Notes under the pieces: model-generated
Seen by the model: only the letters and a program-made list of their open reading frames with translations
Databases searched by the model: none
Told to the model about the DNA's origin: nothing
Program-made: the position numbers and the translations under genes
Assembly (NCBI GenBank): GCA_964556925.1
Contig: CAZKXY010000001.1
Span: 2,790-66,789, forward strand
DNA from: an uncultured Planctomycetales bacterium
GTDB taxonomy: Bacteria; Omnitrophota; Gorgyraeia; Aquiviventales; Aquiviventaceae
Length of the DNA stretch: 64,000 nucleotides
Direction: 5' to 3'
In this document: one piece after another, positions 17,990 through 34,894 of the stretch
Layout of the letters: every line of letters begins with the position of its first letter
Position numbering within the stretch: the first letter of the stretch is position 1

Positions 17990-18798
17990 AACTCTTGGTG
18001 CGGGACGCGCTCAGCGTCATGCGGTGGGGGCTCCATCGCCTGCTGCGTCGGCCGGTTCGGTCAGGGGTGCGGATCCTCCTCTACCATGCGATTGCCACGC
18101 TGCCGCGCCGGCGCGATCGATGGCGCCTGAGCGTGCCGCCCGCGCTGCTGGCGGCGCACGTGGCGTGGCTGAGGCGACACGGGTATGCCATCGTGTCCTT
18201 GGAGGACGCGCTGGACATGATTCGGGGCACGCGGCCGATGATCGAGAAAGCCGTGGCGGTGACGTTTGACGACGGCTTCCGGGATGTCCTGACGCAGGCC
18301 TACCCCATCCTCCGGCAGGCGCAGGTGCCGGCCACGGTGTTTGTGGTGCCGGGCTGCCTCGGGTCGCCGGAGCCGTTCCCGTGGGTGGAGCCGTCGGTCG
18401 GGTTTGCCCGACCGCTGCAGTGGGAGGAGCTGCAGACGCTGCTTGGCGATCAGCTGGTGTCCATTGGCTCCCATACGTGGAGCCATCGGACGCTCAGCCG
18501 GCTGCCGGTCGAGGAGCAGGGGCTGGAGCTTGCGCGATCCAAGTCGGCGCTGGAAGCCCGGCTGGGCACGAGCGTCAAATGGCTCGCGTATCCGTACGGT
18601 CATGCCGGCTCGTTCTCCCAGGAGACGATCGCGTGCGTCCAGCGCGTCGGGTTCGAGGCGGCGTTCGCCAACATCATGGGGGTCAATCGCGCGGGCGACT
18701 CGCTCTGGATGGTGAGGCGCACGCGCGTGGGCTGGGACGATCGGCTCTGGCGATTTCATCTGAAAATGGCCGGGGCCTACGACTGGCTGGACCGATGA
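17983..18798 (+). CDS. Polysaccharide deacetylase (NodB / CE4 family)
   Basis: VTFDDGF, HTWSH and LAYPYG motifs. Confidence 0.75.
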   Translation: MLKLLVRDALSVMRWGLHRLLRRPVRSGVRILLYHAIATLPRRRDRWRLSVPPALLAAHVAWLRRHGYAIVSLEDALDMIRGTRPMIEKAVAVTFDDGFRDVLTQAYPILRQAQVPATVFVVPGCLGSPEPFPWVEPSVGFARPLQWEELQTLLGDQLVSIGSHTWSHRTLSRLPVEEQGLELARSKSALEARLGTSVKWLAYPYGHAGSFSQETIACVQRVGFEAAFANIMGVNRAGDSLWMVRRTRVGWDDRLWRFHLKMAGAYDWLDR

Positions 18799-20006
18799 AG
18801 GTGCTGCGGATCATCACGCGGTTGAACATCGGGGGGCCGGCGATCCATGCGGCCCTGTTGTCGACGCAGCTCGATGCCGGGCGCTTCCCCACCTGCCTCG
18901 TCGCGGGAACGCCGCAGGCGGGCGAGGGTGATCTGAGCGGCCTGGTGCGCGGCGGAGCCGTGCGCCTGGTGCGGCTGTCCACGCTCGTCCGGCCGATCCG
19001 CCCGTGGGCGGATGCGAGGACGCTGATCGCGCTGTTGCGGATCCTCTGGGCCGAGCGCCCGCAGGTCATCCACACGCATCTGGCCAAGGCCGGGGCGCTA
19101 GGCCGGCTGGCCGCTTTCCTCTATAATGGCCTCGGGCCCGGCCGGGCCCAGGGGGCGCGGGCCGCGGTGCTGCACACCTTTCACGGGCATGTGCTGGAGG
19201 GGTATTTCTCGCCGGCGCTGTCGCGGGCCTTCCTGGCGGTCGAACGATGGCTGGCGCGCCGGACGGACTGCCTGATCGCGGTCAGCCCGGCGATTCGGGA
19301 GGAGCTGTTGGGGCGCAAGCGGATCGGCCGGCCCGCGCAATGGCGGGTGATCCCGTTGGGGGTGGACCTCTCCGCCCTGGCGGCGCTTCCGTCGTCGGAC
19401 GGCGACTCCCCGGTTCGGATCGGCTTGGTCGGGCGGCTGGTGCCGATCAAAAACCCCGGGTTGTTCCTCGAGGCGGTGGCGCGGCTGGCGCCGCAGACGG
19501 CGCATCCGGTGCGGGGCGTGATGGTCGGTGACGGCCCGCTGCGGCCGGCGTTGGAGCGGCACGCCCGTCGGTTGGGGCTGGAGCAGGCGGTTCGCTTCGC
19601 CGGCTGGCAACAGGCGCTGCCGTCGGTCTACGGCGCGCTGGACATTGTGTGCCTGACCTCGTGGAATGAAGGGACGCCTGTCTCGGTCATCGAGGCGATG
19701 GCGTCCAGCCGCGCGGTCGTGGCGACCGATGTGGGCGGCGTGCGGGACCTGCTGGACGACGGCCAGGGGCCGCGCCAGCCGGTCGCGCCCGGCACGTTCC
19801 ACCTCGCGGCGCGCGGGATGCTCGTCCGCCCTGGGGATGCGCAGGGGCTGGCCGCCGCCCTGCGGGTCATGGTGGAGGATGCGGCGCTGCGCCGCCGGCT
19901 CGGCCAGGCGGCCCGCGCCTACGCGGTGGCGAGCTTCGCCCCCGAGCGGTTGGTGCGGGACATGGCCGCGTGCTACGAGGAGCTGATGGCAGGGAGGCAG
20001 CGATGA
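18795..20006 (+). CDS. GT4-family glycosyltransferase (Glycos_transf_1)
   Basis: N-terminal IGGPAIHAALL and the C-terminal donor-binding block LTSWNEGTPVSVIEAMASSRAVVATDVGG. ATGA overlap. Confidence 0.75.
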   Translation: MKVLRIITRLNIGGPAIHAALLSTQLDAGRFPTCLVAGTPQAGEGDLSGLVRGGAVRLVRLSTLVRPIRPWADARTLIALLRILWAERPQVIHTHLAKAGALGRLAAFLYNGLGPGRAQGARAAVLHTFHGHVLEGYFSPALSRAFLAVERWLARRTDCLIAVSPAIREELLGRKRIGRPAQWRVIPLGVDLSALAALPSSDGDSPVRIGLVGRLVPIKNPGLFLEAVARLAPQTAHPVRGVMVGDGPLRPALERHARRLGLEQAVRFAGWQQALPSVYGALDIVCLTSWNEGTPVSVIEAMASSRAVVATDVGGVRDLLDDGQGPRQPVAPGTFHLAARGMLVRPGDAQGLAAALRVMVEDAALRRRLGQAARAYAVASFAPERLVRDMAACYEELMAGRQR

Positions 20007-20038
20007 AGGCCTTGATGACGGGCGGGGCGGCGAGATGA
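20003..20038 (+). other. Leader mini-ORF MKALMTGGAAR (11 codons) coupled by ATGA overlaps to both the upstream GT4 stop and the downstream epimerase start
   Basis: Read directly from the sequence: atgaaggccttgatgacgggcggggcggcgagatga. The peptide mimics the N-terminus of the downstream protein (MKALITGGAGF). Confidence 0.4.
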
Positions 20039-21108
20039 AGGCGCTCATTACGGGCGGGGCGGGGTTCATCGGATCGCATCTGACCGAGGCGCTCCTCAGG
20101 CGGGGCGATCACGTGACGGTGCTGGACGATCTCTCGACCGGCCGGTACGAGAACCTCGCGCACCTGGACGGCCGCCCGGAGCTCCAGGTCGTCATCGGGA
20201 CGGTCCTGAACGAGACCCTGGTGGACAAGTTCACCGAGCGGTGCGACGTGGTATTCCACCTGGCGGCCGCGGTCGGGGTGGAGCTGATCATCAAGAAGCC
20301 GCTGGAGTCGCTCATGACCAACATCCGCGGCAGCGAGATCATCCTCGAGATGGCCCACCGGTACCGCAAGAAGGTCCTGGTCGCCTCCACCTCCGAGATC
20401 TACGGCAAGAACACCACCGGCCCGCTGCGGGAGGACACCGACCGGGTGCTGGGCTCGGCCCTGAAGACGCGGTGGAGCTACTCGACGTCGAAAGCCGTGG
20501 ATGAAATCCTCGCGTACGTCTACTGGAAAGAGAAGAAGGTCCCGACGGTCATCGTGCGCCTCTTCAACACGGTCGGGCCCAGGCAGAGCGGCGCGTACGG
20601 GATGGTGATCCCGCGGTTTGTCAGCCAGGCGCTGGCGGGCAGGCCCCTCCAGGTGCACGGGGACGGCACGCAGACCCGGTGCTTCCTGCACGTGAACGAT
20701 GTCGTGCAGGCCCTGACGAAGCTCATCGAGCATCCCGGCGCCGTGGGGCAGGTGTTCAACCTCGGCAGCCAGGAGGAGGTGACGATCGAGGAGCTGGCGA
20801 AGCGCATCATCCGCCTCACCGGCAGCGCCTCTCGCATCGAGTACCTCCCGTATGACCAGGCGTATGAGGAAGGCTACGAGGACATGCCGCGGCGGGTGCC
20901 GGATACGAGCAAGGTCCGCGCGCTGATCGGCTTTGCGCCGAGCATGAATCTCGATGAGACCATCCGCAGCGTGGTCAGGAGCATGCGGCCTGAGAGGCCG
21001 GCCGCGCCCGCCACGGATCGCCCCACCCCGCCGGCGCGCCGGCGCCTCCGGAGAGGTGTCAGACACCTTTCAAAGCGGGAAAAGTGTCTGACACCTCTGG
21101 TGCGATGA
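20035..21108 (+). CDS. NAD-dependent epimerase/dehydratase (GalE/WcaG-like nucleotide-sugar 4-epimerase)
   Basis: ITGGAGFIGSHL and YSTSK (YxxxK). The last ~15 codons read through repeat copy A1 (GVRHLSKREKCLTP), so the true C-terminus is uncertain. Confidence 0.8.
   Translation: MKALITGGAGFIGSHLTEALLRRGDHVTVLDDLSTGRYENLAHLDGRPELQVVIGTVLNETLVDKFTERCDVVFHLAAAVGVELIIKKPLESLMTNIRGSEIILEMAHRYRKKVLVASTSEIYGKNTTGPLREDTDRVLGSALKTRWSYSTSKAVDEILAYVYWKEKKVPTVIVRLFNTVGPRQSGAYGMVIPRFVSQALAGRPLQVHGDGTQTRCFLHVNDVVQALTKLIEHPGAVGQVFNLGSQEEVTIEELAKRIIRLTGSASRIEYLPYDQAYEEGYEDMPRRVPDTSKVRALIGFAPSMNLDETIRSVVRSMRPERPAAPATDRPTPPARRRLRRGVRHLSKREKCLTPLVR
21054..21096. repeat. Family-A double-palindrome element, copy A1 (short spacer CAAAGCGGG)
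   Basis: AGGTGTCAGACACCTTT-CAAAGCGGG-AAAAGTGTCTGACACCT. Each arm, GGTGTC-N-GACACC, is itself palindromic. Confidence 0.85.
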
Positions 21109-22952
21109 GTGTCATGGCTCGGCACGTGGAGGCGTGGCTGAGCGCTCCGGTGTGGCAACAGCTCGGGATCGGCTGGCTGGCGGGGCTCACCGCCTTGCTC
21201 GTGACCCTGATGCTGACGCCGCTCGTCCGCGAGATGGCGGTGCGGTTCGGGTGGGTGGCCAGGCCGGTCGGGGACCGGTGGGGCCGGCGCGCCGTCGCGC
21301 GGCTCGGCGGGGTGGCCATGTTCGCCGGCTTTGTGACGGCGGTCCTCATCTGGGCGCCGCTTGAGCCGCGCGTGATCGGGCTCTTGGGGGGCACGGTCCT
21401 GGTGTTCCTCTTGGGTCTGCTCGATGACATCCGGCGGATGCCGGCCCATACGAAGCTCGTGGGGCAGCTGCTCATCGGCTGCGTCGTCGTGCTCAGCGGC
21501 ATCCGCGTGGAGGTGAGCGCCTGGCCCTGGCTGTCGATCCCGCTGTCGGTCTTCTGGTTCGTGCTGGTCATGAACGCCTTCAACCTGCTGGACAACATGG
21601 ACGGCCTGGCGGCCGGCGTCGGGGCCATCGCCGCCGCGTTCTGCGTCGTCCATGCGGCGCTCGCCGGCGAGCGGATCGTGGCGATGCTGGCGGTGATCCT
21701 GTGCGGCACGTGCCTGGGGTTTCTCTTGCTCAACTTCCCTCCGGCGAAGATCTACATGGGCGATTCCGGCAGCCACTTCCTGGGCCTCAGCTTGGCCGCG
21801 TTGGCGCTGCTCGGCGGTTGGCGCCATTCCACGCACCTGTTGAGCGTGCTGGCGGTGCCGTCGCTGATCCTGGCGGTGCCGATCTTCGACACGTGCTTCG
21901 TCACGGTGCAGCGGCTCGCGCACCGGCTGCACCCGTTCGTCGGCGGGCGCGACCACGTGTCGCACCGGCTGGCCATCCTCGGCCTGAGCACCCGCCAGAC
22001 GGTGATCGCCCTCTACGGCCTGAGCGCGTCCCTCGGCGTGCTCAGCGTCGTGTCCCTCTCCCTGCGGCCGCTGGCGACGGTCGTGATGTGGCTGTTTGCC
22101 CTGACGGGGTTCGTCCTGGTCGGTTCGTACCTCTCGAACGTCAAGGTGTATCGGCTGAGCCGAACGCCGGCCGAGGCGGAGGAGGAACCGGATCGGCCCG
22201 TCACCCTGATCGACACCATGCTGATGCACAAACGCCGGCTCGTGGAGATCCTGGTGGACTTCGTCCTGGTGGGCGGCGTCTACGTCGTCGCCTACCTCCT
22301 GCGGTTCGAAGGGGCGCTGACGAGGGACCTCCAGCAGCTGATCGTGCAGTCGCTGCCGGTGATCCTGGTGGTGAAGTTGACATCCTTCGCCGCCTGCGGG
22401 GTGTACCGGGGCATCTGGCGCTACCTGAGCCTGCCGGATGTGGTGACGGTCTTCAAAGCGGTGACGCTCGGCTCGGTGGGTTCGGCGCTGGCGGTCTTGT
22501 ATCTCTGGCGGTTCGGCGGCTATTCCCGCGCGGTGTTCATCATCGACTGGATGCTGACCTTTTTCGCCGTCGGCGGCTCGCGGGTTCTGGAGCGGCTGCT
22601 CGATGAATGGATCAGCGCGGCCTCGGCGCAGGGGACCCCGCTGGTGATCATCGGGGCGGGGGATACCGGCGCGCGCGTGTTGCGGGCGCTGAAAGACGAG
22701 GGCCACGCGCGCCGCGTGATCGGGTTGCTCGATGATAACGTCCGCACGCACGGCGACCGCATCCACGGCGTGCCGGTCTTGGGCGGGCGGGGCAGGCTGC
22801 CGGAGCTGATTCAGGGCGCCGGGGTGCGGGAAATCCTCATCGCGATGAGCGACCCGCCGGGGGAGCTGCTCCACTACATCCAGCGCTGCTGCGAGCCGCA
22901 TGGCGCCTCCTGGAAAATCGTGACCGCGGGGATCATGCATGCCCCCGAATAG
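21105..22952 (+). CDS. Polyprenol-phosphate hexose-/HexNAc-1-phosphate transferase (WecA/MraY GT4 family) fused to a C-terminal CoA/NAD-binding CapD/PglF-like domain
   Basis: NAFNLLDNMDGLAAG and IYMGDSGSHFLG (MraY/WecA motifs), then LVIIGAGDTGARVLRAL...VIGLLDDN. Confidence 0.75.
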   Translation: MSVMARHVEAWLSAPVWQQLGIGWLAGLTALLVTLMLTPLVREMAVRFGWVARPVGDRWGRRAVARLGGVAMFAGFVTAVLIWAPLEPRVIGLLGGTVLVFLLGLLDDIRRMPAHTKLVGQLLIGCVVVLSGIRVEVSAWPWLSIPLSVFWFVLVMNAFNLLDNMDGLAAGVGAIAAAFCVVHAALAGERIVAMLAVILCGTCLGFLLLNFPPAKIYMGDSGSHFLGLSLAALALLGGWRHSTHLLSVLAVPSLILAVPIFDTCFVTVQRLAHRLHPFVGGRDHVSHRLAILGLSTRQTVIALYGLSASLGVLSVVSLSLRPLATVVMWLFALTGFVLVGSYLSNVKVYRLSRTPAEAEEEPDRPVTLIDTMLMHKRRLVEILVDFVLVGGVYVVAYLLRFEGALTRDLQQLIVQSLPVILVVKLTSFAACGVYRGIWRYLSLPDVVTVFKAVTLGSVGSALAVLYLWRFGGYSRAVFIIDWMLTFFAVGGSRVLERLLDEWISAASAQGTPLVIIGAGDTGARVLRALKDEGHARRVIGLLDDNVRTHGDRIHGVPVLGGRGRLPELIQGAGVREILIAMSDPPGELLHYIQRCCEPHGASWKIVTAGIMHAPE

Positions 22953-25207: not shown

Positions 25208-26313
25208 GCGCGATCCAGCGCATCCTCATCATCAATCCCTTCGGCATCGGCGACGTGCTGTTCACGACGCCGCTGATCCGGGCCCTCCGGCAGGCCTTTC
25301 CCGACAGCCGCATCGGGTACCTCTGCAACCGGCGCACCGAGCGGACGCTGCAGGATAACCCCCACCTGGATGAGCTGTTCATCTACGAGAAGGATGAGCT
25401 GGTGCGGCTGTGGCGGGCTTCGTGGTGGCAGGGGGTGGCCTATGCCGCCCGCCTGGTCCGCCGCCTCAGACAGGCGCGGTTCGATCTCGTGATCGACCTG
25501 TCCTTGGGGGAGCGATACAGCTTCCTCGTGAAGCTCCTCGGGGTGCGCCGGCGCATCGGGTTCGATTACCGCCGCCGGGGCCGGTTTCTCACCCAGCGGC
25601 TGGAGATTGACGGCTACCACGACGCCCACGTCGTGGACTACTACGATCGCCTCCTGCGGTTCATGGGGATCCGGACGGCCGACGCCTCGTTGGAGCTGCA
25701 TGTGAACGTCGCCGACGAGCGGTGGGCCTTGGGCTGGATCCGCGCGCGCCGGTTGCAGGACGTGCGCCTGCTCGTGGGCATCGTCCCGGCCGGCGGGGTC
25801 AGTTGGGGCATTGACGCGCCGTTTCGACGCTGGGGGTTGGAGCGCTTCGCGGCGGTGGGCGATGCGCTGATCGAGCGGCACGACGCGACCGTCGTGCTCT
25901 TCGGCGAAGCCACCGATGTCGCGTTGTGCCAGACCGTGGGCCGTCTCATGCGGCATCCGGTCATCGACTTAAGCGGCCAGACCACGTTCGGCCAGTTCGT
26001 GAGCCTGCTCAGCCGGCTGGGGCTGGTCATCTGCAACGACGGCGGGCCGTTGCATCTGGCCGTCAGCCAGGGGGTCAGGACCGTGTCGATTTTCGGGCCG
26101 GTGGACCCGCAGGTCTACGGCCCGTACGGGTCCCCTGGCCGCCACCGGGTCGTGACGAAGCCGCTGCCGTGCCGGCCCTGCTACCATCGGTTCCGGCTGC
26201 CGCCGTGCCCCTATAACCGCGCCTGCCTCAATGAGCTGTCCGTGGAGGACGTGCTGGCGAGCATCGAGGACACCATGCAGGATCTGCGCGCCGGCGCAGC
26301 GGTGCCCTCCTGA
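25204..26313 (+). CDS. GT9 glycosyltransferase (heptosyltransferase family), second copy
   Basis: ILIINPFGIGDVLFTTPLIRAL, and LVICNDGGPLHLAVSQGVRTVSIFGP. ATGA overlap. Confidence 0.75.
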   Translation: MSAIQRILIINPFGIGDVLFTTPLIRALRQAFPDSRIGYLCNRRTERTLQDNPHLDELFIYEKDELVRLWRASWWQGVAYAARLVRRLRQARFDLVIDLSLGERYSFLVKLLGVRRRIGFDYRRRGRFLTQRLEIDGYHDAHVVDYYDRLLRFMGIRTADASLELHVNVADERWALGWIRARRLQDVRLLVGIVPAGGVSWGIDAPFRRWGLERFAAVGDALIERHDATVVLFGEATDVALCQTVGRLMRHPVIDLSGQTTFGQFVSLLSRLGLVICNDGGPLHLAVSQGVRTVSIFGPVDPQVYGPYGSPGRHRVVTKPLPCRPCYHRFRLPPCPYNRACLNELSVEDVLASIEDTMQDLRAGAAVPS

Positions 26314-27425
26314 TGCGGGTGCCCTACGTCGACCTGCCGGCCCAGTCCGTTGAGGTGCATGGCGCCCTCCACCGCGCCTTCGACCGCGTGCTGCGGCGCG
26401 GGGATTTTGTGCTGGGGGAAGCGGTCGAGGCCTTCGAGGCGGCCTTCGCGCGAAGCTGCCAGGCGCCCTACGCGGTGGGCGTCAACTCCGGCACCGACGC
26501 GCTGTGGCTGTCGCTGGCGGCGCTGGGGATCGGGCCGGGCGATGAGGTGATCACGACCGCCTACACCTTCTTCGCCACCGCCTCCGCGATCGCGCTCACG
26601 GGCGCCTCGCCCGTGGCGGCGGACATCGATCCGGTGACGTACACCCTCGATCCGGCCTCCGTGGAGGCGGCCGTGACGAAGCGGACGAAGGCGATCCTGG
26701 CCGTCCATCTGTTCGGCCAGCCGGCGGACATGGACCGCTTGACCAGGATCGCGAGGCGGCACCGGCTCGCGCTGGTGGAGGATTGCGCGCAGGCCCACGG
26801 GGCCGCGTTCCGGGGACAGAGCGTGGGCACGTTCGGGGAGGCGGGCGCCTTCAGTTTTTACCCGACCAAGAACCTCAGCGCGCTGGGAGACGCCGGCCTC
26901 ATCGTCACGACCCGCCGCGCCCTCCGCGACCGGCTGCGGCTGTTGCGGGATCATGGCCAGACCCGACCCTACCGCCACGCGGCGCTGGGTCACAACAGCC
27001 GCCTGGACACGCTCCAGGCGGCGGTGCTGCTGGCGAAGCTGCCGCGCCTGGCCGCGTGGAACCGGCGCCGGGCCCAGCACGCGCGGCGCTACACGGCGCG
27101 CCTTGGCGCGTGCGCCGCGCGGATCGTGCTGCCGCACGCCGCGCCGCATCGGACGCACGTGTACCACGTCTATGCCGTGCAGGTGCCCGGGCGCGACCGG
27201 GTTGTCCGTGGGCTGCGTGCGCGCGGCATCCAGGCCCTGGTCCACTACCCGTCGCTGTTCTACGAGCAGCCGGTCTTCCGGCGGCTCGGGTGCCGTCGGG
27301 GCCGCTGCCCCGTGGCCGAGCGGCTCGCGCGGCGTGCCGTCTCGCTGCCGATCGCGCCACAGCTTCAGCCCGCGCAGATCGACTACGTGGCGGAGCAACT
27401 CATCAACATCGTGGGGGGACGATGA
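26313..27425 (+). CDS. DegT/DnrJ/EryC1/StrS-family PLP-dependent sugar aminotransferase
   Basis: GVNSGTDAL, SFYPTKNLSALGDAG (containing the PLP lysine) and the NSRLD motif. Confidence 0.8.
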   Translation: MRVPYVDLPAQSVEVHGALHRAFDRVLRRGDFVLGEAVEAFEAAFARSCQAPYAVGVNSGTDALWLSLAALGIGPGDEVITTAYTFFATASAIALTGASPVAADIDPVTYTLDPASVEAAVTKRTKAILAVHLFGQPADMDRLTRIARRHRLALVEDCAQAHGAAFRGQSVGTFGEAGAFSFYPTKNLSALGDAGLIVTTRRALRDRLRLLRDHGQTRPYRHAALGHNSRLDTLQAAVLLAKLPRLAAWNRRRAQHARRYTARLGACAARIVLPHAAPHRTHVYHVYAVQVPGRDRVVRGLRARGIQALVHYPSLFYEQPVFRRLGCRRGRCPVAERLARRAVSLPIAPQLQPAQIDYVAEQLINIVGGR

Positions 27426-27518
27426 TCGTTGCTCGATCGTCCCTGCTTCTGGCTGCGGGGCCGGCTCGCCTGCGGTGCGCGGCATCGCTCCGGCCGCCCA
27501 GCGTGCGGCCGGTCGCTC

Positions 27519-27578
27519 AAAAGGTGTCAGACACCTTTCCCGATGCGAGACGAGCGGTCGAAAGGTGTCTGACACCTG
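27519..27578. repeat. Family-A element, copy A2 (long spacer containing GCGAGACGA)
   Basis: AAAGGTGTCAGACACCTTTCC-CGATGCGAGACGAGCGGTCG-AAAGGTGTCTGACACCTG. Lies in a 210-nt gap. Confidence 0.85.
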
Positions 27579-27636
27579 TTGCGATGCGCAGCGGCAGGAC
27601 CCGTCGGGCCAACACAGACCTGCAACAGGTGGCGGG

Positions 27637-28491
27637 ATGGCGCGACGCGTGACGATCGGGGCGGTGTACTGCGTCTACAACGAGGATGAGTACATCGCCT
27701 ATTCGATCCGGTCCATCCTCGGCTTCGCCGACCGGATCTTCGTGCTGCTCGGCCGGGCGCCGTATTCCGCCTATAACGCCAGGGCGCGGGAACAGTTCAC
27801 CGCGGCCGACCGGACCGAGGCGATCGTCGACGCGCTCGCCCGGGAGCATGCCGCCATCACGCTGGTGAAGGGGCTGTGGGACTCCGAGCTCGCGCACCGC
27901 AATGCCGGCTTGCAATGGTGCTGGCGCGAAGGCTGCCGCTACTACTTCCTGATCGACGGCGACGAGGTGTACCGGCGGGACCACCTTGTGCGGCTGCGGG
28001 AGGAGATCCTCGCGCATCCCGAGGCCGGGCAGTTCATCATCAAGTGCGACCTCTTCTGGCGCAGCTTCCGCTACCGGATCCCGGCGAGCGAGCTCGCGTG
28101 GATGCCGCGGCGGGTCTTCAAGCTGACGCGCGTCTCGGAGCTTGGCAAGACGCACCTGCCCGTGCCGCTGCGGTGCCGGTTCACCGGCAACAACAAAACC
28201 AATAGCTGGGGCGCGGTGCACCACCTGGAGCCATCCCAGGTGAAGTTCTACCACTTTTCCTTCGCGCGCTCCCCGGAGAAGATGCGCGAGAAACTGCTCA
28301 CCTACAGCCATGCCCACGAAATCCTGGACGGCTGGTTTGAGCGCGTCTGGTTGCGCTGGCCGCAGCAGCGCGACATGACGAACCTCAACCCGGTGGATCC
28401 GCCCAAGCTGCCCCGGGCCGTCCTCCACGACGTGGCCGATCTACCCGAGGTCATGCGGGACCATCCCTATTACCACCAGGACATCATATGA
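27637..28491 (+). CDS. GT-A fold glycosyltransferase (GT2-like, DxD = IDGDE)
   Basis: VYCVYNEDEYI and FLIDGDEVY. Confidence 0.5.
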   Translation: MARRVTIGAVYCVYNEDEYIAYSIRSILGFADRIFVLLGRAPYSAYNARAREQFTAADRTEAIVDALAREHAAITLVKGLWDSELAHRNAGLQWCWREGCRYYFLIDGDEVYRRDHLVRLREEILAHPEAGQFIIKCDLFWRSFRYRIPASELAWMPRRVFKLTRVSELGKTHLPVPLRCRFTGNNKTNSWGAVHHLEPSQVKFYHFSFARSPEKMREKLLTYSHAHEILDGWFERVWLRWPQQRDMTNLNPVDPPKLPRAVLHDVADLPEVMRDHPYYHQDII

Positions 28492-28492
28492 A

Positions 28493-28537
28493 CAGGTGTC
28501 AGACACCTTTCAAGGCGGGAAAAGTGTCTGACACCTG
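28493..28537. repeat. Family-A element, copy A3 (short spacer)
   Basis: CAGGTGTCAGACACCTTTCAAGGCGGGAAAAGTGTCTGACACCTG. Confidence 0.85.
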
Positions 28538-28616
28538 TGCGGCGGACTGGCCGCGCGTCGTCCGCAAATTCGGTCAGGCCGATGGGTGCACGATCGAGCG
28601 TCTGGGCCAGGACCAG

Positions 28617-29669
28617 GTGGAGGCGCTCTGCGACTTTTTCGCTCGCGCGTACGCCGACCGACCCCTCGCCCAGGCCTTCAGCGATCGGACCCTGATCCGT
28701 CGTCGATGGACGTGGTGGCACGAGGGCAATCCCGCTCGCCTCGACGCCGCGCCCCAGGCGTGGGTGTGCCGCCGCCAGGGTCAGATCATTGGACACATGG
28801 CGGCCCTGCCGGCGGTGGCGCTGGTCAACGGGCGGCCCCTGCCGGTCTGCTGGGGCGCAGACCTCATCGTGGCTCCGGAGCGGCGCCGCCACGGCCTCGG
28901 CCCCGTGCTCGTCATGACGCTCGTGCAGGCGATGCGGCAGCCGGTCATGATCGCCGGGACCAACGAGGACGCCTGCCCGATGTTCCGCCGCCTGGGGTTC
29001 GCGGATTGGGGGCGGCTGCCGCTCTACGTGCGGGTGCTCAGGCCGCGCCCGTTCTTCGACACGATGCCGTGGCCGCCGCTTGTCCGGCGGGTGACCGCCG
29101 CGGGATGGCAGGCCGCCGGCCGGGTCGCGTCTCGAGCCCCTCTCTCGCGACCAGGCGCCGTGGTGCCGTTGGAGCGGTTCGACGAGCGGTTCGATCGATG
29201 GTGGCAGCCCATCGAACGGACCTTTCCCGGCGTCATCCGGCGCACCAGCGACACCATGACCTGGCGGTATCACCAGCATCCTCACCACCACTATCAGGCC
29301 TTTGGCGCGATGTCGGCAGGGGCGCTGCGCGGGGTCGTCGTCCTGCGCCACGGCCGCTCCCGCGGCCTGCCGACAGGATTCATTACCGAGCTCCTCGCCG
29401 ATCCGAACGACCAGCAGACCATGGGGGACTTGCTGGCACACGCGCAGGAGGTCTTCACCGCCCACGCGCAGGAGGCCCCGGTGTTCATTCGATGCGCCGT
29501 CCTCCCTGGGGCGTTTGGGCGGGCCCTGCGGCGCGCCGGGTTCCTCCGGGTTCCCAGCCCGATCCATTGGATGGTGGCGCACGCTGACGGGCCCTCAGGC
29601 CTTAGCGACCTCGCGGGTCGGGACGGATGGTTCCTGAACGCGGGGGATAGCGATCTGGATGTGGTGTAG
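28617..29669 (+). CDS. GNAT-family N-acetyltransferase (two-domain)
   Basis: LIVAPERRRHGLGPVLV is an acetyl-CoA binding motif. The start is uncertain: the ORF-track start at 28488 lies inside repeat A3, and a GTG at 28617 is proposed instead. Confidence 0.55.
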   Translation: MEALCDFFARAYADRPLAQAFSDRTLIRRRWTWWHEGNPARLDAAPQAWVCRRQGQIIGHMAALPAVALVNGRPLPVCWGADLIVAPERRRHGLGPVLVMTLVQAMRQPVMIAGTNEDACPMFRRLGFADWGRLPLYVRVLRPRPFFDTMPWPPLVRRVTAAGWQAAGRVASRAPLSRPGAVVPLERFDERFDRWWQPIERTFPGVIRRTSDTMTWRYHQHPHHHYQAFGAMSAGALRGVVVLRHGRSRGLPTGFITELLADPNDQQTMGDLLAHAQEVFTAHAQEAPVFIRCAVLPGAFGRALRRAGFLRVPSPIHWMVAHADGPSGLSDLAGRDGWFLNAGDSDLDVV

Positions 29670-29678
29670 GCGGTGCGC

Positions 29679-29738
29679 ATGAGCCGCGTGCTGGTGACGG
29701 GCGGGGCGGGGTTCACCCCGCCCCGCCTCCCAAGATGA
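29679..29738 (+). other. Leader mini-ORF MSRVLVTGGAGFTPPRLPR (19 codons) ending in an ATGA overlap with the downstream epimerase start
   Basis: Read directly from the sequence. The peptide duplicates the N-terminus of the downstream protein (MRVLVTGGAGFIGSHL). It also contains the hairpin GGGCGGGGCGGGGTTCACCCCGCCCCGCC. Confidence 0.4.
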
Positions 29739-30853
29739 GAGTCCTGGTTACCGGAGGGGCGGGGTTCATTGGGTCGCATCTGGTGGATGCCCTGGTGCGC
29801 GAGGGGCATCAGGTCCGCGTCCTCGACAACCTGGAGCCGCAGGTGCACGAGGGGCGCCAGCCGGCGTATCTGCATCCTGACGCGGAGTACCGCTGGGGCG
29901 ACCTCCGCGACCGCCAGGCGGTCCGCAAGGCGCTGGAGGGCGTCAAGGTCGTCTTCCACGAGGCCGCCGCGGTCGGCGTCGGGCAGTCCATGTACCAGAT
30001 TGAGAAGTACGTCTCCGCGAACGTCCTGGGGACGGCCGTGTTGCTGGATGTCATCGTGACGGAGCGGGTGTCGATCCACAAGCTGGTGGTCGCCAGCTCC
30101 ATGAGCCTCTACGGCGAGGGCCACTACCGGTGCGAGGCCTGCGGCCCGATGGTCATTGCGCTGCGTCCGGCCGAGCAGCTCGCCGCGCGCCAGTGGGAGC
30201 CGCGCTGCCCGCGCTGTCGCGCGGCGGTGGTTCCGCAGCCGACCCCGGAAGACAAGCCGCTTGTGCCGACGTCGGTGTACGCGGTGTCCAAACGCGACCA
30301 GGAAGAGCTCTGCCTGACGGTCGGCGCCGCGCATCAGATTCCGATGGTCGCCCTGCGCTACTTCAACGTCTATGGGAGCCGCCAGGCGCTCTCCAACCCC
30401 TACACGGGCGTCTGCGCGATCTTCTCCGCCCGCATCAAGCACGCCAAGGCGCCGCTGCTCTTCGAGGATGGCCGGCAGGCGCGCGATTTCACCCACGTGC
30501 GCGACATCGTCCACGCGAACCTGCTGGTCATGCGCGAGGCGCGCGCCGATGGCCGCGTCTTCAACGTGGCCACGGGCCTGCCGACCAGCATCCTGGACAT
30601 CGCCCGGGCGCTGATCCGCTGCTATGGCGCGGCGGTGGAGCCCCAGGTGACGCAGCAGTTCCGCGCCGGCGACATCCGGCACTGTTACGCGGACATCCGG
30701 CGGCTGCGCGAGCTGGGCTTCTCGCCGAGCGTCCGGCTTGACGACGGCCTGCGGGAGCTGGTGGCCTGGGGCAGGCAGGAGCGGGCCGACGATCGCGTGG
30801 AGCTCGCGACGCGGGAGCTGACGAAGTTCGGGCTGGTGCGCGGCCATGGCTGA
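29735..30853 (+). CDS. NAD-dependent epimerase/dehydratase with an inserted Cys4 zinc-ribbon (CxxC...CxxC) before the catalytic YxxxK
   Basis: VTGGAGFIGSHL; the insert YRCEACGP...PRCPRCRA; and YAVSK. Confidence 0.75.
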   Translation: MRVLVTGGAGFIGSHLVDALVREGHQVRVLDNLEPQVHEGRQPAYLHPDAEYRWGDLRDRQAVRKALEGVKVVFHEAAAVGVGQSMYQIEKYVSANVLGTAVLLDVIVTERVSIHKLVVASSMSLYGEGHYRCEACGPMVIALRPAEQLAARQWEPRCPRCRAAVVPQPTPEDKPLVPTSVYAVSKRDQEELCLTVGAAHQIPMVALRYFNVYGSRQALSNPYTGVCAIFSARIKHAKAPLLFEDGRQARDFTHVRDIVHANLLVMREARADGRVFNVATGLPTSILDIARALIRCYGAAVEPQVTQQFRAGDIRHCYADIRRLRELGFSPSVRLDDGLRELVAWGRQERADDRVELATRELTKFGLVRGHG

Positions 30854-32009
30854 GCCGGTCTGCGATCTCGTGCTGTTAAGCTGGAACCACCTGGAGCAGA
30901 CCCGGCCGTGCCTTGAGACGCTGGCCGGCTCCACCACCGTGCCGTGCCGTTTGTTCCTCGTGGATAACGGCAGCGAGCCCCCGGTGCGGGAGTTCCTCCG
31001 CGGCGTGCGCCCAGCCGGCGCGATCCAAGAGGTGGTGCTCCTGCAGAACGAGACAAACGAGGGCTTCCCCCGCGGGATGAACCGCGGCATCCGCGCCTCG
31101 CGCGCGCCGTACGTGTGCCTGCTCAACAACGACCTGCGGTTGACCACCGGCTGGCTCGAGGAGCTCGTGGCGGTGGCCGAGGCCCATCCGACCCTGGGGG
31201 TGCTCAACCCCAACACCAGCAACCTCGACAACACCCCGAAAGGGATCACGCTGGAAGCCTATGCCCAGCGCCTGCGCGCCGCGCGCGGGCAGCATCTGGA
31301 GCTGGGGATGTGCATCGGCTTCTGCATGCTCATCAAGCGGGCGGTGCTGGATGCGATCGGGGGCCTGAGCGAGGAGGTGGAGCGGATCTTTTTTGAAGAC
31401 GAGGACTTCTGCATGCGCGCGCAGCAGGCCGGCTTCCAGTGCGGAGTGGCGCTGGGCGCCTACGTGTTCCACGCCGAGCACCAGACCGTCAAGGAGCTGC
31501 CGGAGCGCGAGGCGCTCTTCGCCCGGAACCGGCGCTGGTGCCACGGCAAGTGGGGGCGCTGGGTGCGGATGGCCTGGCCGCGGTTTACGCCGGTGGTGCC
31601 GGGCTCCAGTGAGCTGCGGCACTGGCTGGAGCAGCTGCTCGGCTTCGTCAGGCGCCGCACGCTGGTCTACGTCTATGGCCCGATGCCGGACGGCTTCAGC
31701 CGCGACGGGTTGTGTCGCTCCGTGGGGCTCGTCCCGCACGCGGACCTGCGCTGGTATGCGGTGCCGCGAGCGCTGGCGCCACTCGCCGCCGCCGCGATGA
31801 TCCTCAAGCGGCGCAAGAAGCGGTTCAACGTGATCACGGCCCCGACGCCAGGCTGGGGACGGTGGATGCGACGGTTCACGCCGCTGCACGGGGCAGCGGT
31901 GGTGCCGGAAGACGATGACGCGCGGCTGCGCGCCGAGTGGGCGCGCGCCGCCTGGCGCGGGCTGGCCGAGCCGGCCGCGCCGCCGAGGGACGGGAAGACG
32001 CGGCCATGA
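30846..32009 (+). CDS. GT2 glycosyltransferase (rhamnosyl/galactosyl-transferase-like) with a C-terminal extension
   Basis: LVDNGS and LLNNDLRLTTGWLEEL motifs. It is paralogous to the second domain of the next gene. Confidence 0.7.
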   Translation: MAEPVCDLVLLSWNHLEQTRPCLETLAGSTTVPCRLFLVDNGSEPPVREFLRGVRPAGAIQEVVLLQNETNEGFPRGMNRGIRASRAPYVCLLNNDLRLTTGWLEELVAVAEAHPTLGVLNPNTSNLDNTPKGITLEAYAQRLRAARGQHLELGMCIGFCMLIKRAVLDAIGGLSEEVERIFFEDEDFCMRAQQAGFQCGVALGAYVFHAEHQTVKELPEREALFARNRRWCHGKWGRWVRMAWPRFTPVVPGSSELRHWLEQLLGFVRRRTLVYVYGPMPDGFSRDGLCRSVGLVPHADLRWYAVPRALAPLAAAAMILKRRKKRFNVITAPTPGWGRWMRRFTPLHGAAVVPEDDDARLRAEWARAAWRGLAEPAAPPRDGKTRP

Positions 32010-32142
32010 CCCCACTACCTGGGCGTGGGCCGGGTCGACGATACGGGGCGTCCGCGACCGACCCGGCCCGGGGTCGCGGCGTCTGGCTGACAACTGTGTG
32101 GGCGACCCGCCCCGCCGCAGGCGGGGCCGCCCAGGTAGTGGG
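32010..32142. promoter_or_regulatory. Structured 133-nt spacer bounded by a perfect 12-bp long-range inverted repeat, upstream of the dual-domain GT2 gene
   Basis: CCACTACCTGGG (32012-32023) / CCCAGGTAGTGG (32128-32139). Inner hairpins: CGCGACCGACCCGG/CCGGGGTCGCG, and GCCCCGCC-gca-GGCGGGGC immediately before the start codon. Confidence 0.45.
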
Positions 32143-34005
32143 ATGAGGGTTCCGGTGTCGGTGGTGATCCTCACCAAAAACGAGGCCGGCCGCATCCGCG
32201 AGTGCCTCGAGAGCGTGCGGTGGGCGGATGAGGTCCTCGTCGTCGATGACAACAGCACCGATGAGACCGTCCCGCTCGCGCAATCGCTCGGCGCCCGGGT
32301 GCTCCGGCGCACCATGGACCTCGAGGGCCGGCACCGCAACTGGGCCGCCGCCCAAGCCGCGCACGAGTGGGTCTTCAGCCTGGACGCGGACGAGCGCGTC
32401 ACCCCGGAGCTGGCGCAGGAGATCACCGCGCTGCTGCAGGGTCCTCCCGTCTACGAGACCTATGCGATCCCTCGGCGCAACTACATCGGGGACCGGTGGA
32501 TTCGGCACGGCGGCTGGTACCCCAGCGCCCAGGTGAAACTGTTCAAGAAATCGGCGTTTCGGTGGGAAGAGACCACCGTCCACCCCCGGGCCATCGGGCC
32601 GGCCGCCGGCGAGCTGACGCACGAGCTGCTTCACTACTCCTATCGTGACCTCGCGGATTTTGTCAGCAAGCTGGATCGCCAGACGACGTTGGAGTCGGAG
32701 AAGTGGGTCGCCGATGGCCGCCGCATGACGCTGGGCAAAGCCCTCTGGCGAAGCGCTGATCGGTTCTGGCGGGCCTTCGTGGGCAAGCAGGGCTGGCGGG
32801 ATGGGGTCTGGGGATTCCTCGTCGCGGTCATGGCCGGCTGCTACCAGATCCTGAGCTACGCGAAATATTGGGAGGCGCTCCTGCGCCTGCGCCACGAGCC
32901 CGCCACCTCTCCCGGCGCGCAGGAGGCGGCCGAGACGACGCCGGTCCTCTGCGACCTGATCGTGCTCACCTGGAACCGCGCGGATTTACTCCGGAGCTGC
33001 GTCGAGCGGCTCCTGGCCCATACGCCGCTTCCCAGCCGGCTCCTCATCGTGGATAACGGCAGCACCGATCCGGAGGCGTTGGGGTACCTGGACGCGCTGC
33101 GCCGGCGCCACCCGCGCGGCGTCGAGGTCATCCGGCATCCGGCCAACATCGGGATCGCCGCCGCGCTCAATGCCGGGCTGGCCCGGACCCGGGCGCCCTG
33201 GATCGGCCTGCTCAACAATGACGCCTTCGTGACCGCCGGCTGGCTGGAGGAGCTGATCGCCGTGGCGGAGTCCGACCCGTCGATCGGCCTGGTCAACCCC
33301 ATGAGCAACCAGTTCGGCCTCGCCCCCCGCGCGCGCGAAACCATCGATGCGGTCGCGCGCCGATGCCGCGCGGCCCGCGGGCGGTGGATCGAGCAGTCCC
33401 GCGCTGAGGGATTTTGCGTCGTGCTGCCCCGCCGGGTCTTCGAGCGCGTGGGCTATTGGGATGACACGCTGGGCGGGATGTTTTACGAGGACGCCGATTA
33501 CGCCCTGCGCGCGCGCCAGGCCGGGTTCCGCTCGGTGGTGGCCGAAGGGGCCTATGTCTATCATGTCGGCGGCGCAACGATCGGGCGGGACCCGGCGCGG
33601 CACGAGCGCTTCGCAGCAAGCGCCGCGCGCTTTGCTCGGAAGTGGCCCCTGGCCCAGCCGCAGCGGATGGGCTGGATCCTGGGGCGCGAACGCGGCCCTG
33701 CGCTGACGCCCGCGGCCTGCGCCATCCGCGAGCTGGCGAACGCGGGCCACAAGCTCTGGGTGTTCGGCGCCGCCGGCCAGGTGCGCGAGCTGCCCCGGCA
33801 TCTGCAGGTCGTCCCGGTGACGCTGCCGCGGGTCGGCGGATCCCTCGTCGCGCTGTGGCGGATCCTGACCAAGAAAAAACGCTTCCAGCGGATCGTCGTC
33901 GAGCCGGGCGCACTCGCGCGCGCGGTGAGGAGCCTCACCCCGCTGCACCGGGCGATGGTGGAGCCGCCTCCGGTCCGGCAGGACTCGCCTGATGGCGTCC
34001 CGTGA
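32143..34005 (+). CDS. Dual-domain glycosyltransferase: GT2 (WaaE/KdtX-like LTKNE type) followed by GT2 (rhamnosyltransferase-like)
   Basis: Domain 1: VSVVILTKNEAGRIRECLESVRWADEVLVVDD. Domain 2: LIVDNGS ... LLNNDAFVTAGWLEEL. Confidence 0.7.
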   Translation: MRVPVSVVILTKNEAGRIRECLESVRWADEVLVVDDNSTDETVPLAQSLGARVLRRTMDLEGRHRNWAAAQAAHEWVFSLDADERVTPELAQEITALLQGPPVYETYAIPRRNYIGDRWIRHGGWYPSAQVKLFKKSAFRWEETTVHPRAIGPAAGELTHELLHYSYRDLADFVSKLDRQTTLESEKWVADGRRMTLGKALWRSADRFWRAFVGKQGWRDGVWGFLVAVMAGCYQILSYAKYWEALLRLRHEPATSPGAQEAAETTPVLCDLIVLTWNRADLLRSCVERLLAHTPLPSRLLIVDNGSTDPEALGYLDALRRRHPRGVEVIRHPANIGIAAALNAGLARTRAPWIGLLNNDAFVTAGWLEELIAVAESDPSIGLVNPMSNQFGLAPRARETIDAVARRCRAARGRWIEQSRAEGFCVVLPRRVFERVGYWDDTLGGMFYEDADYALRARQAGFRSVVAEGAYVYHVGGATIGRDPARHERFAASAARFARKWPLAQPQRMGWILGRERGPALTPAACAIRELANAGHKLWVFGAAGQVRELPRHLQVVPVTLPRVGGSLVALWRILTKKKRFQRIVVEPGALARAVRSLTPLHRAMVEPPPVRQDSPDGVP

Positions 34006-34894
34006 ACCCCGCCCCACGGCCTGCCCGCCCCGCTCCGCTGGAGCGGGCCAGCGATCTCACCCGCTCGATGAACGGGCTGGGCTCACAGGCGGGGCTTCCG
34101 TGGGGCGGGGTGAACGGCTGACCGCGCTGCTCTTGACGAAGAACGAGGAAGCGCAATTGCGGCGCTGCCTGGACAGCGTCCGGTGGGCCGATGAGGTCGT
34201 GGTCGTCGATGGCCAGAGCACCGACCGCACCCCCCAGATCGCTCGAGACTACGGCGCAACCGTGGTGTCGCGGCCGTTCAGCGGCTCCTTCGCCGAGGAG
34301 CGCAACGCCGGCCTGGCGGTCGCCACCGGCGACTGGGTGCTCCAGATGGACGCGGACGAGCAGGTCAGCCCGGGCCTGCGCGCGGCGATCGAGCGGCTCT
34401 TGGCCGACGGCTCGCCCCACGCGGCGTTCAAGCTGAGGCGGCTCAACACGTTCCTCGGCCGGACGATGCGCCACGGTGGCTGGTACCACTACCACACGGC
34501 GCTGTTCCGCCGGCAGGGCGCGCGGTACGAGGGGCTGGTGCATGAGCGGCTGCGCCACCAGGGGAGCGTGGGCGTCCTGGAGGCGGACCTGTGCCACGAG
34601 CCGTTTCAGTCGATCAGCCAGTTCCTCGCGCGCCAGAACCGCTACACCAGTCTGCAGGCGCGCGAGCTGTTCGAGCGCCAGGGGCGACTGCCGCTGGCGC
34701 GCGTGAGGCGCCAATTGTGGGCCCGCCCGCTCAAGCTGTTCTGGAAAGCGTACGTCAAGAAGCAGGGCTTCCGCGAGGGCCGGCACGGCTTGATGTTCTC
34801 GATCCTGTTTGCGTGGGTGGATTTCCTCTTGTGGGCCAAGTATTGGGAACTGGTCTGGGCGGGATCCAGCGGAGACGCGCGCCGCCATGCGTGA
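33992..34894 (+). CDS. GT2 glycosyltransferase (WaaE/KdtX-like), paralog of domain 1 of the preceding gene
   Basis: LTALLLTKNEEAQLRRCLDSVRWADEVVVVDGQSTD. The start is ambiguous. The ATG at 33992 would place a strong hairpin inside the N-terminal coding region. An alternative GTG near 34100 lies just after that hairpin. Confidence 0.6.
   Translation: MASREPRPTACPPRSAGAGQRSHPLDERAGLTGGASVGRGERLTALLLTKNEEAQLRRCLDSVRWADEVVVVDGQSTDRTPQIARDYGATVVSRPFSGSFAEERNAGLAVATGDWVLQMDADEQVSPGLRAAIERLLADGSPHAAFKLRRLNTFLGRTMRHGGWYHYHTALFRRQGARYEGLVHERLRHQGSVGVLEADLCHEPFQSISQFLARQNRYTSLQARELFERQGRLPLARVRRQLWARPLKLFWKAYVKKQGFREGRHGLMFSILFAWVDFLLWAKYWELVWAGSSGDARRHA
34001..34116. promoter_or_regulatory. Structured element bounded by a perfect 14-bp long-range inverted repeat, upstream of (or within the 5' end of) the paralogous GT2 gene
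   Basis: ACCCCGCCCCACGG (34006-34019) / CCGTGGGGCGGGGT (34098-34111). Flanking direct GTGAAC repeats. Inner hairpin CCGCTCC-gct-GGAGCGG. Confidence 0.45.

Follow-up and report, generated by a model that had tools for sequence, protein, structure and literature searches.

The stretch of DNA analyzed here (the window) comprises 64,000 nucleotides (nt) of contig CAZKXY010000001.1 from GenBank assembly GCA_964556925.1 (positions 2,790 to 66,789 of the forward strand), whose host lineage is the high-GC Candidatus Omnitrophota. It encodes a GT4 glycosyltransferase and an NAD-dependent epimerase/dehydratase (epimerase 1), joined by mini-ORF 1, a short open reading frame (ORF) of 11 sense codons (ATG AAG GCC TTG ATG ACG GGC GGG GCG GCG AGA TGA) that mimics the start of the gene it precedes. 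Both of its junctions read ATGA: the GT4 stop (TGA 20004-20006) is overlapped by the mini-ORF ATG (20003-20005), and the mini-ORF stop (TGA 20036-20038) overlaps the epimerase ATG (20035-20037). The preliminary description of this DNA had placed the mini-ORF between two such overlaps, as direct reading of the sequence confirms, and had called it a degenerate duplicate of the epimerase start. Our analysis establishes that the feature is real and beyond chance and points to a rearranged gene start as its origin. The features at this locus (copy 1) and at its counterpart farther downstream (copy 2) are collected in Table 1, together with the dispersed repeats discussed at the end.

Table 1. Features of the window and of two metagenome loci (window positions unless a locus is named)
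Feature	Position	Strand	Basis or remark
GT4 glycosyltransferase gene	18795..20006	+	Pfam Glyco_trans_1_4 / Glycos_transf_1; gene call on L001 (1761-2972), sequence
Shine-Dalgarno GGGAGG, 5 nt before mini-ORF 1 ATG; putative ancestral epimerase ribosome-binding site	19992..19997	+	Sequence, anti-Shine-Dalgarno pairing
Head-to-tail direct repeat, two 32-nt units (20003-20034, 20035-20066)	20003..20066	+	Sequence; repeat family D13
Mini-ORF 1, MKALMTGGAAR then stop; apparent orphaned original start plus first nine epimerase codons	20003..20038	+	Sequence, repeat comparison
NAD-dependent epimerase/dehydratase 1, 357 aa (MKALITGGAGFIGSHL)	20035..21108	+	Pfam Epimerase E=3.5e-55
Shine-Dalgarno-like AGGCGG, 5 nt before mini-ORF 2 ATG	29668..29673	+	Sequence; anti-Shine-Dalgarno pairing -7.0 kcal/mol
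Mini-ORF 2, 19 codons (MSRVLVTGGAGFTPPRLPR then stop)	29679..29738	+	First 12 residues = N-terminus of closest orthologue L023
Perfect 12-bp GC hairpin, TTCA loop: GGCGGGGCGGGG-TTCA-CCCCGCCCCGCC	29700..29727	+	-36.1 kcal/mol, z = -3.0
49-nt insert-like segment	29716..29764	+	Inverted-repeat ends; TTCA flanks 29712-29715, 29765-29768
NAD-dependent epimerase/dehydratase 2; ATG overlaps mini-ORF 2 stop; no upstream Shine-Dalgarno	29735..30853	+	
REP-like element sites, window	21055/21083, 27523/27564, 28495/28523, 41231/41259, 44137/44165, 47798/47826, 51395/51436, 53090/53131, 55863/55904		
REP-like element sites, metagenome loci	L032 5698-5749, L034 1645-1694		

The two repeat units of copy 1 are identical at 24 of their first 28 bases, which bears out the degenerate duplicate, and at 25/32 across the full period. 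Three of the four differences within the 28 nt are silent (GCC/GCG, TTG/CTC), and the remaining one, at a third position, exchanges Met and Ile (ATG/ATT). A degenerate pattern of the repeat finds exactly two sites, the copy 1 units themselves, against 0.00 expected from shuffles, in keeping with the earlier claim that the duplication is unlikely to be chance. Compared with the real N-termini of orthologous epimerases, mini-ORF 1 matches at up to 26/28 nt, a closeness equal to that of the functional copy. An independently assembled contig (L001; ENA/MEGAHIT) carries a junction identical to copy 1. The RNA of copy 1 folds no better than its shuffles (z = -0.57).

Comparison with relatives places the original start of the gene. 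The mini-ORF is absent from 21 orthologous epimerase 1 loci, the leaderless set consisting of L002-L004, L005-L021, L031 and the contigs on which P0003 and P0004 lie. A direct 4-nt overlap joins the upstream gene to the epimerase ATG in L002-L004 and on the P0003 and P0004 contigs; L005-L012 and L031 have a Shine-Dalgarno (SD) sequence 5-9 nt ahead of that ATG; and L013-L021 are likewise without the mini-ORF. Because this coupled or SD-served ATG of the orthologues occupies the position of the mini-ORF 1 ATG, sequence comparison identifies the latter as the apparent ancestral epimerase start and the 32 nt as a later addition. The preliminary description had listed the footprint of a duplication among its possible origins and had proposed a search of relatives for the same leader; the absence of the repeat from the 21 loci and the position of the mini-ORF ATG support that origin, and among the epimerase 1 orthologues a leader is present only in L037 (P0089; another Omnitrophota genome, 80% identical). 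A quick neighbour-joining tree does not pair the window and L037 as sisters, and the window's nearest relatives are leaderless, which argues for repeated gains or losses of the leader. The same tree lends no support to inheritance of the leader by the window and L037 as sister lineages, and the 21 leaderless loci rule out a conserved regulatory leader of the GT4-epimerase operon for the nearest relatives. The orthologues of epimerase 2, including L023, also have no mini-ORF. As for the route, the copy 1 repeat may have arisen by slippage, allele replacement or insertion: its divergence (24/28, with both units equally near the orthologues) suits an old duplication and a diverged allele alike. 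No duplicated motif occurs in the in-frame N-terminal extensions of unusually long homologues (P0039, P0239, P0227 and others).

The preliminary description had also reported that the same architecture recurs 9.7 kb downstream. This stands in part: copy 2 has a mimic mini-ORF whose TGA overlaps the epimerase 2 ATG, but there is no ATGA on its upstream side, where the stop of a GNAT gene (TAG 29667-29669) lies 9 nt away. Nor are the copies the same in build, copy 2 having 19 codons instead of 11, plus a 12-bp hairpin missing from copy 1. Epimerases 1 and 2 share 30% identity, and the two copies are therefore not a duplicated gene block. The mini-ORF 2 peptide matches exactly MSRVLVTGGAGF, the start of L023, which is the closest epimerase 2 orthologue (82% identical); the present start of epimerase 2 reads MRVLV, without the Ser codon that mini-ORF 2 and L023 have. 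The left arm of the hairpin corresponds to the Gly-Ala-Gly codons of mini-ORF 2. The 49-nt segment consists, in order, of a C-run, a 7-nt spacer remainder (29728-29734), the new ATGA start with five codons, and a G-run, and both this layout and a 53-nt period are shared by three metagenome loci (L032, L034 and L036). A simple 56-nt tandem duplication was rejected for copy 2, as its tail CCCCGCCCCGCCTCCCAAG is unlike the gene segment and the copies differ by a codon. Nor did the leaderless relatives examined yield any sequence in support of snap-back synthesis, or of a native 5'-UTR C-run, as the source of the hairpin.

Mimic leaders of this kind recur before other genes of the short-chain dehydrogenase/reductase (SDR) family. 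A metagenome scan, with no frame fixed, for an ATGA-started T-G-G-A motif and an SDR start 2-32 nt after it returned seven loci, none of them the window's own contig, and relatives of one match added an eighth (L040-L042); the two window copies bring the total to ten loci. In all ten, the start-to-start offset is 32, 53, 56, 59 or 62 nt, each equal to 2 modulo 3, and the second start reads ATGA with the mimic's TGA overlapping the real ATG, a property that the search did not impose, as an in-frame fusion or a read-through frame would equally have matched the pattern. Given about five to six independent origins, the chance of an invariant frame is ~(1/3)^5 or lower; the constancy of frame and ATGA thus indicates that the end point of the mini-ORF is under selection. 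In 7/9 loci the ATGA of the mimic holds the stop of a long upstream ORF, twice in the order rmlA, mimic, rmlB, and the mimic start is therefore an ordinary coupled gene start. The leaders precede, among others, a Patescibacteria rmlB (L035), two RfbB-like orthologues that are 67% identical and both bear a hairpin-type leader (L032, 68% GC; L036, 60% GC), and, on the same contig as L032, another SDR gene (L034). A hairpin at the mimic was found in five loci, and no significant structure in L033, L035, L038 or copy 1. In 8/10 loci, copy 1 not among them, the new start has a higher AT content in its first codons than the mimic. Viral contigs scanned with the same pattern gave no matches, and a comparison of the copy 2 leader with plasmids returned ordinary SDR N-termini only. 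Searches of the literature turned up nothing specific on leader ORFs copying the N-terminus of the gene that follows them. Mini-ORFs that mimic the N-terminus before extended SDR sugar-nucleotide genes form a class that is small, recurrent and apparently undescribed. Two of the downstream genes (L033 and L038) are shorter than normal GalE/RfbB-type enzymes, and may be pseudogenes or assembly errors.

The Patescibacteria junctions document the persistence of such a leader. The rmlB genes of L035 and L040 carry a homologous leader despite gene bodies that are 79% identical (55% at third positions): the mimic is an intact ORF in both and identical at 28/35 positions, the spacer at 28/30 and the new start at 32/35. 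Three equally distant Patescibacteria relatives are leaderless, with a TAATG overlap (L045), a stop-AG-ATG junction (L039) or a stop-AG-spacer-ATG junction (L043). In L043, the homologous spacer forms ordinary intergenic DNA, with no mimic present. The mimics of L035 and L040 agree at 30-31/35 nt with the real starts found in L039 and L043, and the new starts of L035 and L040 are of a separate, AT-richer type. As judged from these alignments, the pattern would fit allele recombination (for example, homology-facilitated illegitimate recombination) or insertion of a spacer plus new start, and would fit a simple recent tandem duplication less well. In addition, the 27-nt rmlB spacer of L043 (1172-1200) resembles a decayed junction between an upstream gene end and an ATGA start, as seen in L045 at 1190-1203 (AAGCTTGAAATGA versus AAGCTTTAATGA), a likeness that hints at repeated rounds of junction duplication.

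The distribution of SD sequences bears directly on how these genes are started. In copy 1, predicted anti-SD pairing amounts to -11.1 kcal/mol before the mini-ORF ATG and -6.5 before ATG 20035; the corresponding values in copy 2 are -7.0 before the mimic and +1.9 before the real ATG. Across the high-GC loci, the mimic start is served by -6.6 to -11.1 kcal/mol in 5/6 cases (L036, -3.0), a range resembling that before the real start of leaderless high-GC orthologues (mostly -5.6 to -13.5; L005, -2.9). The real start has no SD (+1.2 to +1.9 kcal/mol) in copy 2, L032, L034 and L036, and the real starts of copy 1 and L037 are intermediate, both at -6.5. Of the five high-GC hairpin-type loci, four thus have an SD at the mimic start alone. 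The translational-coupling relay that the preliminary description had offered as one explanation thus gains comparative support from the ATGA in all ten loci, the strong SD before the mimic and the four real starts without one.

We therefore consider a termination-reinitiation relay the most likely present role of mini-ORF 1, as judged from the sequence comparisons. A 32-nt head-to-tail repeat of the 5' end would have put a second complete start behind the original, either by duplication or through replacement by a diverged allele together with 4 nt of the sequence upstream of that allele. The original gene start (GGGAGG, the GT4-overlapping ATG and nine codons) would thereby have been stranded as mini-ORF 1. 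With a repeat length of 3n+2 and a start reading ATGA, the old frame ends on a TGA overlapping the new ATG. Ribosomes would arrive from the GT4 gene via the first ATGA or load at the SD, translate the 11 codons, stop where the UGA overlaps the epimerase AUG and reinitiate there, in a two-step ATGA relay; where a leader has a hairpin, translating ribosomes would melt it. The class as a whole would survive, or be selected, only in the frame that keeps the ATGA coupling. In this account the orphaned start probably acts as a relay without being a dedicated sensor, as a tolerated or selected by-product of rearrangement at the 5' end.

Several observations weigh against this relay. We infer both that ribosomes translate mini-ORF 1 and that the epimerase relies on this, and independent initiation at ATG 20035 is possible because the G-rich stretch before it pairs at -6.5 kcal/mol. 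Copy 1 is without the hairpin and the AT-rich new start of most other members. The scan required an intact mimic ATG and a motif no more than 32 nt from the real ATG, so that decayed or distant remnants were invisible to it, and the observations free of this bias are limited to frame, ATGA and hairpin, the breakpoint positions being uninformative. Changes between the mimics of L035 and L040, and of L032 and L036, are mostly synonymous or conservative, a conservation that a pure relay leaves unexplained unless the mimics were independently acquired from functional gene starts. The downstream SDR genes of L033 (9-788, minus strand; 259 aa) and L038 (2398-3153; 251 aa) look truncated. Some of these points suit a neutral scar, in which the 32-nt repeat is a harmless footprint, the epimerase initiates alone at ATG 20035 and the mini-ORF contributes nothing. 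Such a scar would account for a feature that the closest orthologues lack and whose distribution on the tree is sporadic (the window and L037 not being sisters), for the moderate SD-like pairing before the real ATG of copy 1 and the lack of significant structure in that copy, and for apparent truncation in 2/10 downstream genes. We nevertheless think it unlikely, given that frame and ATGA are invariant across the ten loci with neither imposed by the search, that in four loci the real start is preceded by no SD at all, and that the leader has stayed intact across gene bodies diverged to 79% nt and 55% third-position identity. A regulatory leader, in which translation of or stalling on the mimic toggles RNA structures that control epimerase transcription or translation, is more improbable still. 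The C-run of the hairpin-type leaders can indeed pair with the G-run of either the mimic or the real gene, the second pairing encloses the AUG (-27 to -31 kcal/mol with the mimic masked), and the tail encodes Thr/Ile-Pro-Pro in most hairpin-type leaders, L037 excepted; but alternative pairing is unavoidable with two copies of the G-run, and, being an automatic consequence of the repeat, it is given little weight. A scan for intrinsic terminators and promoters at both mini-ORFs found none, the copy 2 hairpin lacking a U-tract, and an Rfam scan of the window gave no match at the gathering score, the copy 2 hairpin drawing only a C4 antisense match below threshold (E = 0.35). Copy 1, L033, L035 and L038 are without significant structure, and the nearest orthologues of both epimerases are without the leader. 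The attenuator of the preliminary description, said to sense stalling on the GGAGF codons, finds no terminator, regulatory codon run or significant copy 1 structure, and we do not retain it. Translational bypassing, with take-off at the Gly/Phe codons of the mimic and landing on matching codons 32-62 nt downstream, would yield an enzyme bearing the mimic's N-terminus and would account for the mimic peptide staying SDR-like. In its favor are the matching codons, the take-off-site hairpin of five loci and a gap of similar size; however, any direct repeat supplies matching codons trivially, so these do not discriminate. No stop or unreadable codon follows the take-off codon (the mimic frame continues for 1-10 sense codons past Gly/Phe), the intervening segment retains an intact ATG and N-terminal codons, the mini-ORF stop falls exactly on the ATGA in 10/10 loci, which bypassing would not need, and copy 1 has no hairpin, all of which makes this reading very improbable. 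Least credible of all is an assembly or sequencing artefact such as a stutter or chimera. The metagenomic source and the G-rich region would favor one, yet the copy 1 units differ at 7/32 positions and the independent contig L001 has the same junction, which excludes an assembler stutter, and the frame-specific layout is common to ten loci from different studies and assemblers.

A different origin, which we regard as conceivable at a low probability, is a self-rescuing insertion. The hairpin-type leaders (copy 2, L032, L034 and L036) would then derive from a tiny inverted-repeat element of ~49 nt with C-run and G-run ends and a TTCA target duplication at the Gly-Phe codons; it would bring its own ATGA and N-terminal codons, rebuild the gene and spread among SDR genes, copy 1 being a 24-nt deletion derivative. 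The inserts of these four loci all start CCCCGCCCC and end GGGGCGGGG, with TTCA on both sides and a 53-nt period, and a 76-nt block spanning the insert is 95% identical between the otherwise unrelated SDR genes of L032 and L034 on one contig. Elements with the same ends and TTCA/TCCA flanks also occur outside SDR genes (window 34007-34110 and 35763-35784; L034 ~3980-4165), and the 14-mer GGGGCGGGGTTCAC is confined to leader 2 and the long element at 34007-34110 (two matches versus 0.01 expected). The extra Ser codon of the closest orthologue, retained by the copy 2 mimic and missing from the new start, points the same way, as do the AT-richer new starts of 8/10 loci and the alignment of copy 1 with the L037 leader as a 24-nt shorter form without the hairpin arm and spacer. 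On the other hand, any duplication of the motif that is joined by a complementary arm automatically gives inverted ends and TTCA flanks, the elements have no linked transposase, copy 1 is without the C-run and TTCA flanks, the L043 spacer without a mimic fits allele recombination better, and just a handful of copies are known. Were this reading nonetheless correct, we would tentatively picture an undescribed insertion of ~40-50 nt that lands, or is template-switched through short homology, into the Gly-Phe codons of the SDR Rossmann GXGXXG motif. Its own ATGA and first beta-strand codons might rebuild the gene, and the orphaned start might then express it by termination-reinitiation, a combination to which we give similarly low odds. 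It is no more probable that the motif DNA serves as homology arms spreading the segment among paralogous SDR genes and lineages, with copy 1 a hairpin-less derivative.

Several known systems share parts of the proposed relay. Strict translational coupling was found in 13 of 14 ATGA-overlapping gene pairs tested (Huber et al. 2019, PMC6728339). The present loci share with such pairs the 4-nt same-strand stop/start overlap and a downstream start that often has no strong SD of its own; they differ in that the upstream partner is no gene, just an 11-19-codon fragment of the downstream gene itself, and in that copy 1 chains two overlaps (GT4 to mini-ORF to epimerase). In class 1 integrons, the SD-bearing 11-codon ORF-11 at the attI1 junction drives translation of start-site-deficient cassettes (PMC8876359); for ORF-11 as for ORF-18, peptide sequence is unimportant, and short ORFs can relieve attC hairpins (Hanau-Bercot et al. 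2002, reviewed in PMC8876359). Here too, an SD-bearing 11-codon ORF lies across an apparent recombination junction and would feed a gene without its own initiation region, but it copies the N-terminus of the downstream gene and its stop overlaps the start exactly. No attI/attC site or integrase was seen, the only search being a Pfam scan of neighbouring genes, and the likeness is a functional analogy only. Synthetic bicistronic designs (BCDs), attributed to Mutalik and colleagues in 2013, reportedly place the SD of the second cistron inside the leader. In BCDs, as here, the stop of the leader cistron overlaps the gene start, and a translating ribosome melts local structure and restarts, as it would in the relay; the present cases differ in being natural and rearrangement-born, four of them without an SD inside the leader.

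Leader-peptide attenuators (trp, pheL and erm types) likewise have a short upstream ORF and, as in our hairpin-type leaders, mutually exclusive helices. In contrast, the loci described here have no regulatory codon run, U-tract terminator or sequestered SD, and their leader copies the N-terminus of the gene and is unconserved among the nearest orthologues. Programmed bypass elements are known from T4 gene 60 and from the mobile byp inserts of Magnusiomyces mitochondria. They resemble the present leaders in being ~30-60 nt, sometimes hairpin-forming inserts between matching codons that leave the host gene functional, and differ in the means of rescue, which here would be the insert's new start codon and reinitiation rather than hopping, with no stop after the take-off codon. 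With MITE/REP-type insertions (miniature inverted-repeat transposable elements and repetitive extragenic palindromes), copy 2 shares inverted-repeat ends, 4-nt direct flanks and look-alikes elsewhere in the genome. At only ~49 nt, however, the segment is embedded in a coding motif, and the coding sequence it contains rebuilds the host gene; copy 1 has no such marks. Translational coupling itself is known; what is apparently new is a junction-born short ORF that mimics the N-terminus of its own gene.

If the relay is true, these loci are natural counterparts of the engineered bicistronic designs: a gene would survive the rearrangement of its own start, its old ribosome-binding site working at a distance via an overlapping stop and start. 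Annotation pipelines, which never call ORFs of 11-19 codons, would then miss an element that controls the initiation of polysaccharide-pathway enzymes. Recurrence in Omnitrophota, Patescibacteria and others raises the question of whether Rossmann-motif DNA is a hot spot of recombination or insertion, and the near-identical block in two genes of one genome raises that of whether a tiny coding insert can propagate among paralogues without destroying them. Should the scars merely be tolerated, they would still constitute a clean natural data set of 5'-end rearrangements that pass selection.

Among the look-alike elements, a ~104-nt one at window 34003-34114 (minus strand) has the ends CCCCGCCCCACGG ... 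CCGTGGGGCGGGG, is flanked by TTCA and lies directly after the stop of the GT2 gene at 31915-34005; an opposite-strand ORF apparently begins a little outside the element and runs through it, and the element has no Rfam match. Its counterpart at L034 4062-4169 has the same ends and a different interior. A perfect GC palindrome of 20-22 nt (CCCCGCCC-TTAA/TGAA-GGGCGGGG) occurs at window 35763-35784 and at L034 ~3980-4002, between direct repeats of 4 nt (window, TCCA; L034, TTCA), and resembles a minimal member of the copy 2 hairpin family.

Mini-ORF 2 sits at a synteny break. Upstream, relatives have the order GT9-GT9-hypothetical-Glyco_trans_1_2 and the window has GT9-GT9-DegT-unknown-GNAT; downstream of epimerase 2, a GT2-GT2 pair is conserved between them. 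Within 26313-29669, a DegT aminotransferase, an unassigned ORF interrupted by a REP-like pair (27514-27588) and the GNAT gene replace 'hypothetical + Glyco_trans_1_2', which amounts to a cassette swap within an otherwise syntenic polysaccharide cluster of related Omnitrophota. The REP-like element consists of two 13-nt palindromes, GGTGTCAGACACC ... GGTGTCTGACACC, set 15-28 nt apart at gene junctions (36 matches versus 1.5 expected). As it is shared with contig Ga0137796_10000142 (L032/L034) at 92-100% identity, we assign that contig to the same lineage as the window. Epimerase 1 is ~13 residues longer than its orthologues (357 versus ~344 aa); over 21046-21108 its frame enters a REP-like element, and the next gene (21084-22952) overlaps that stretch.

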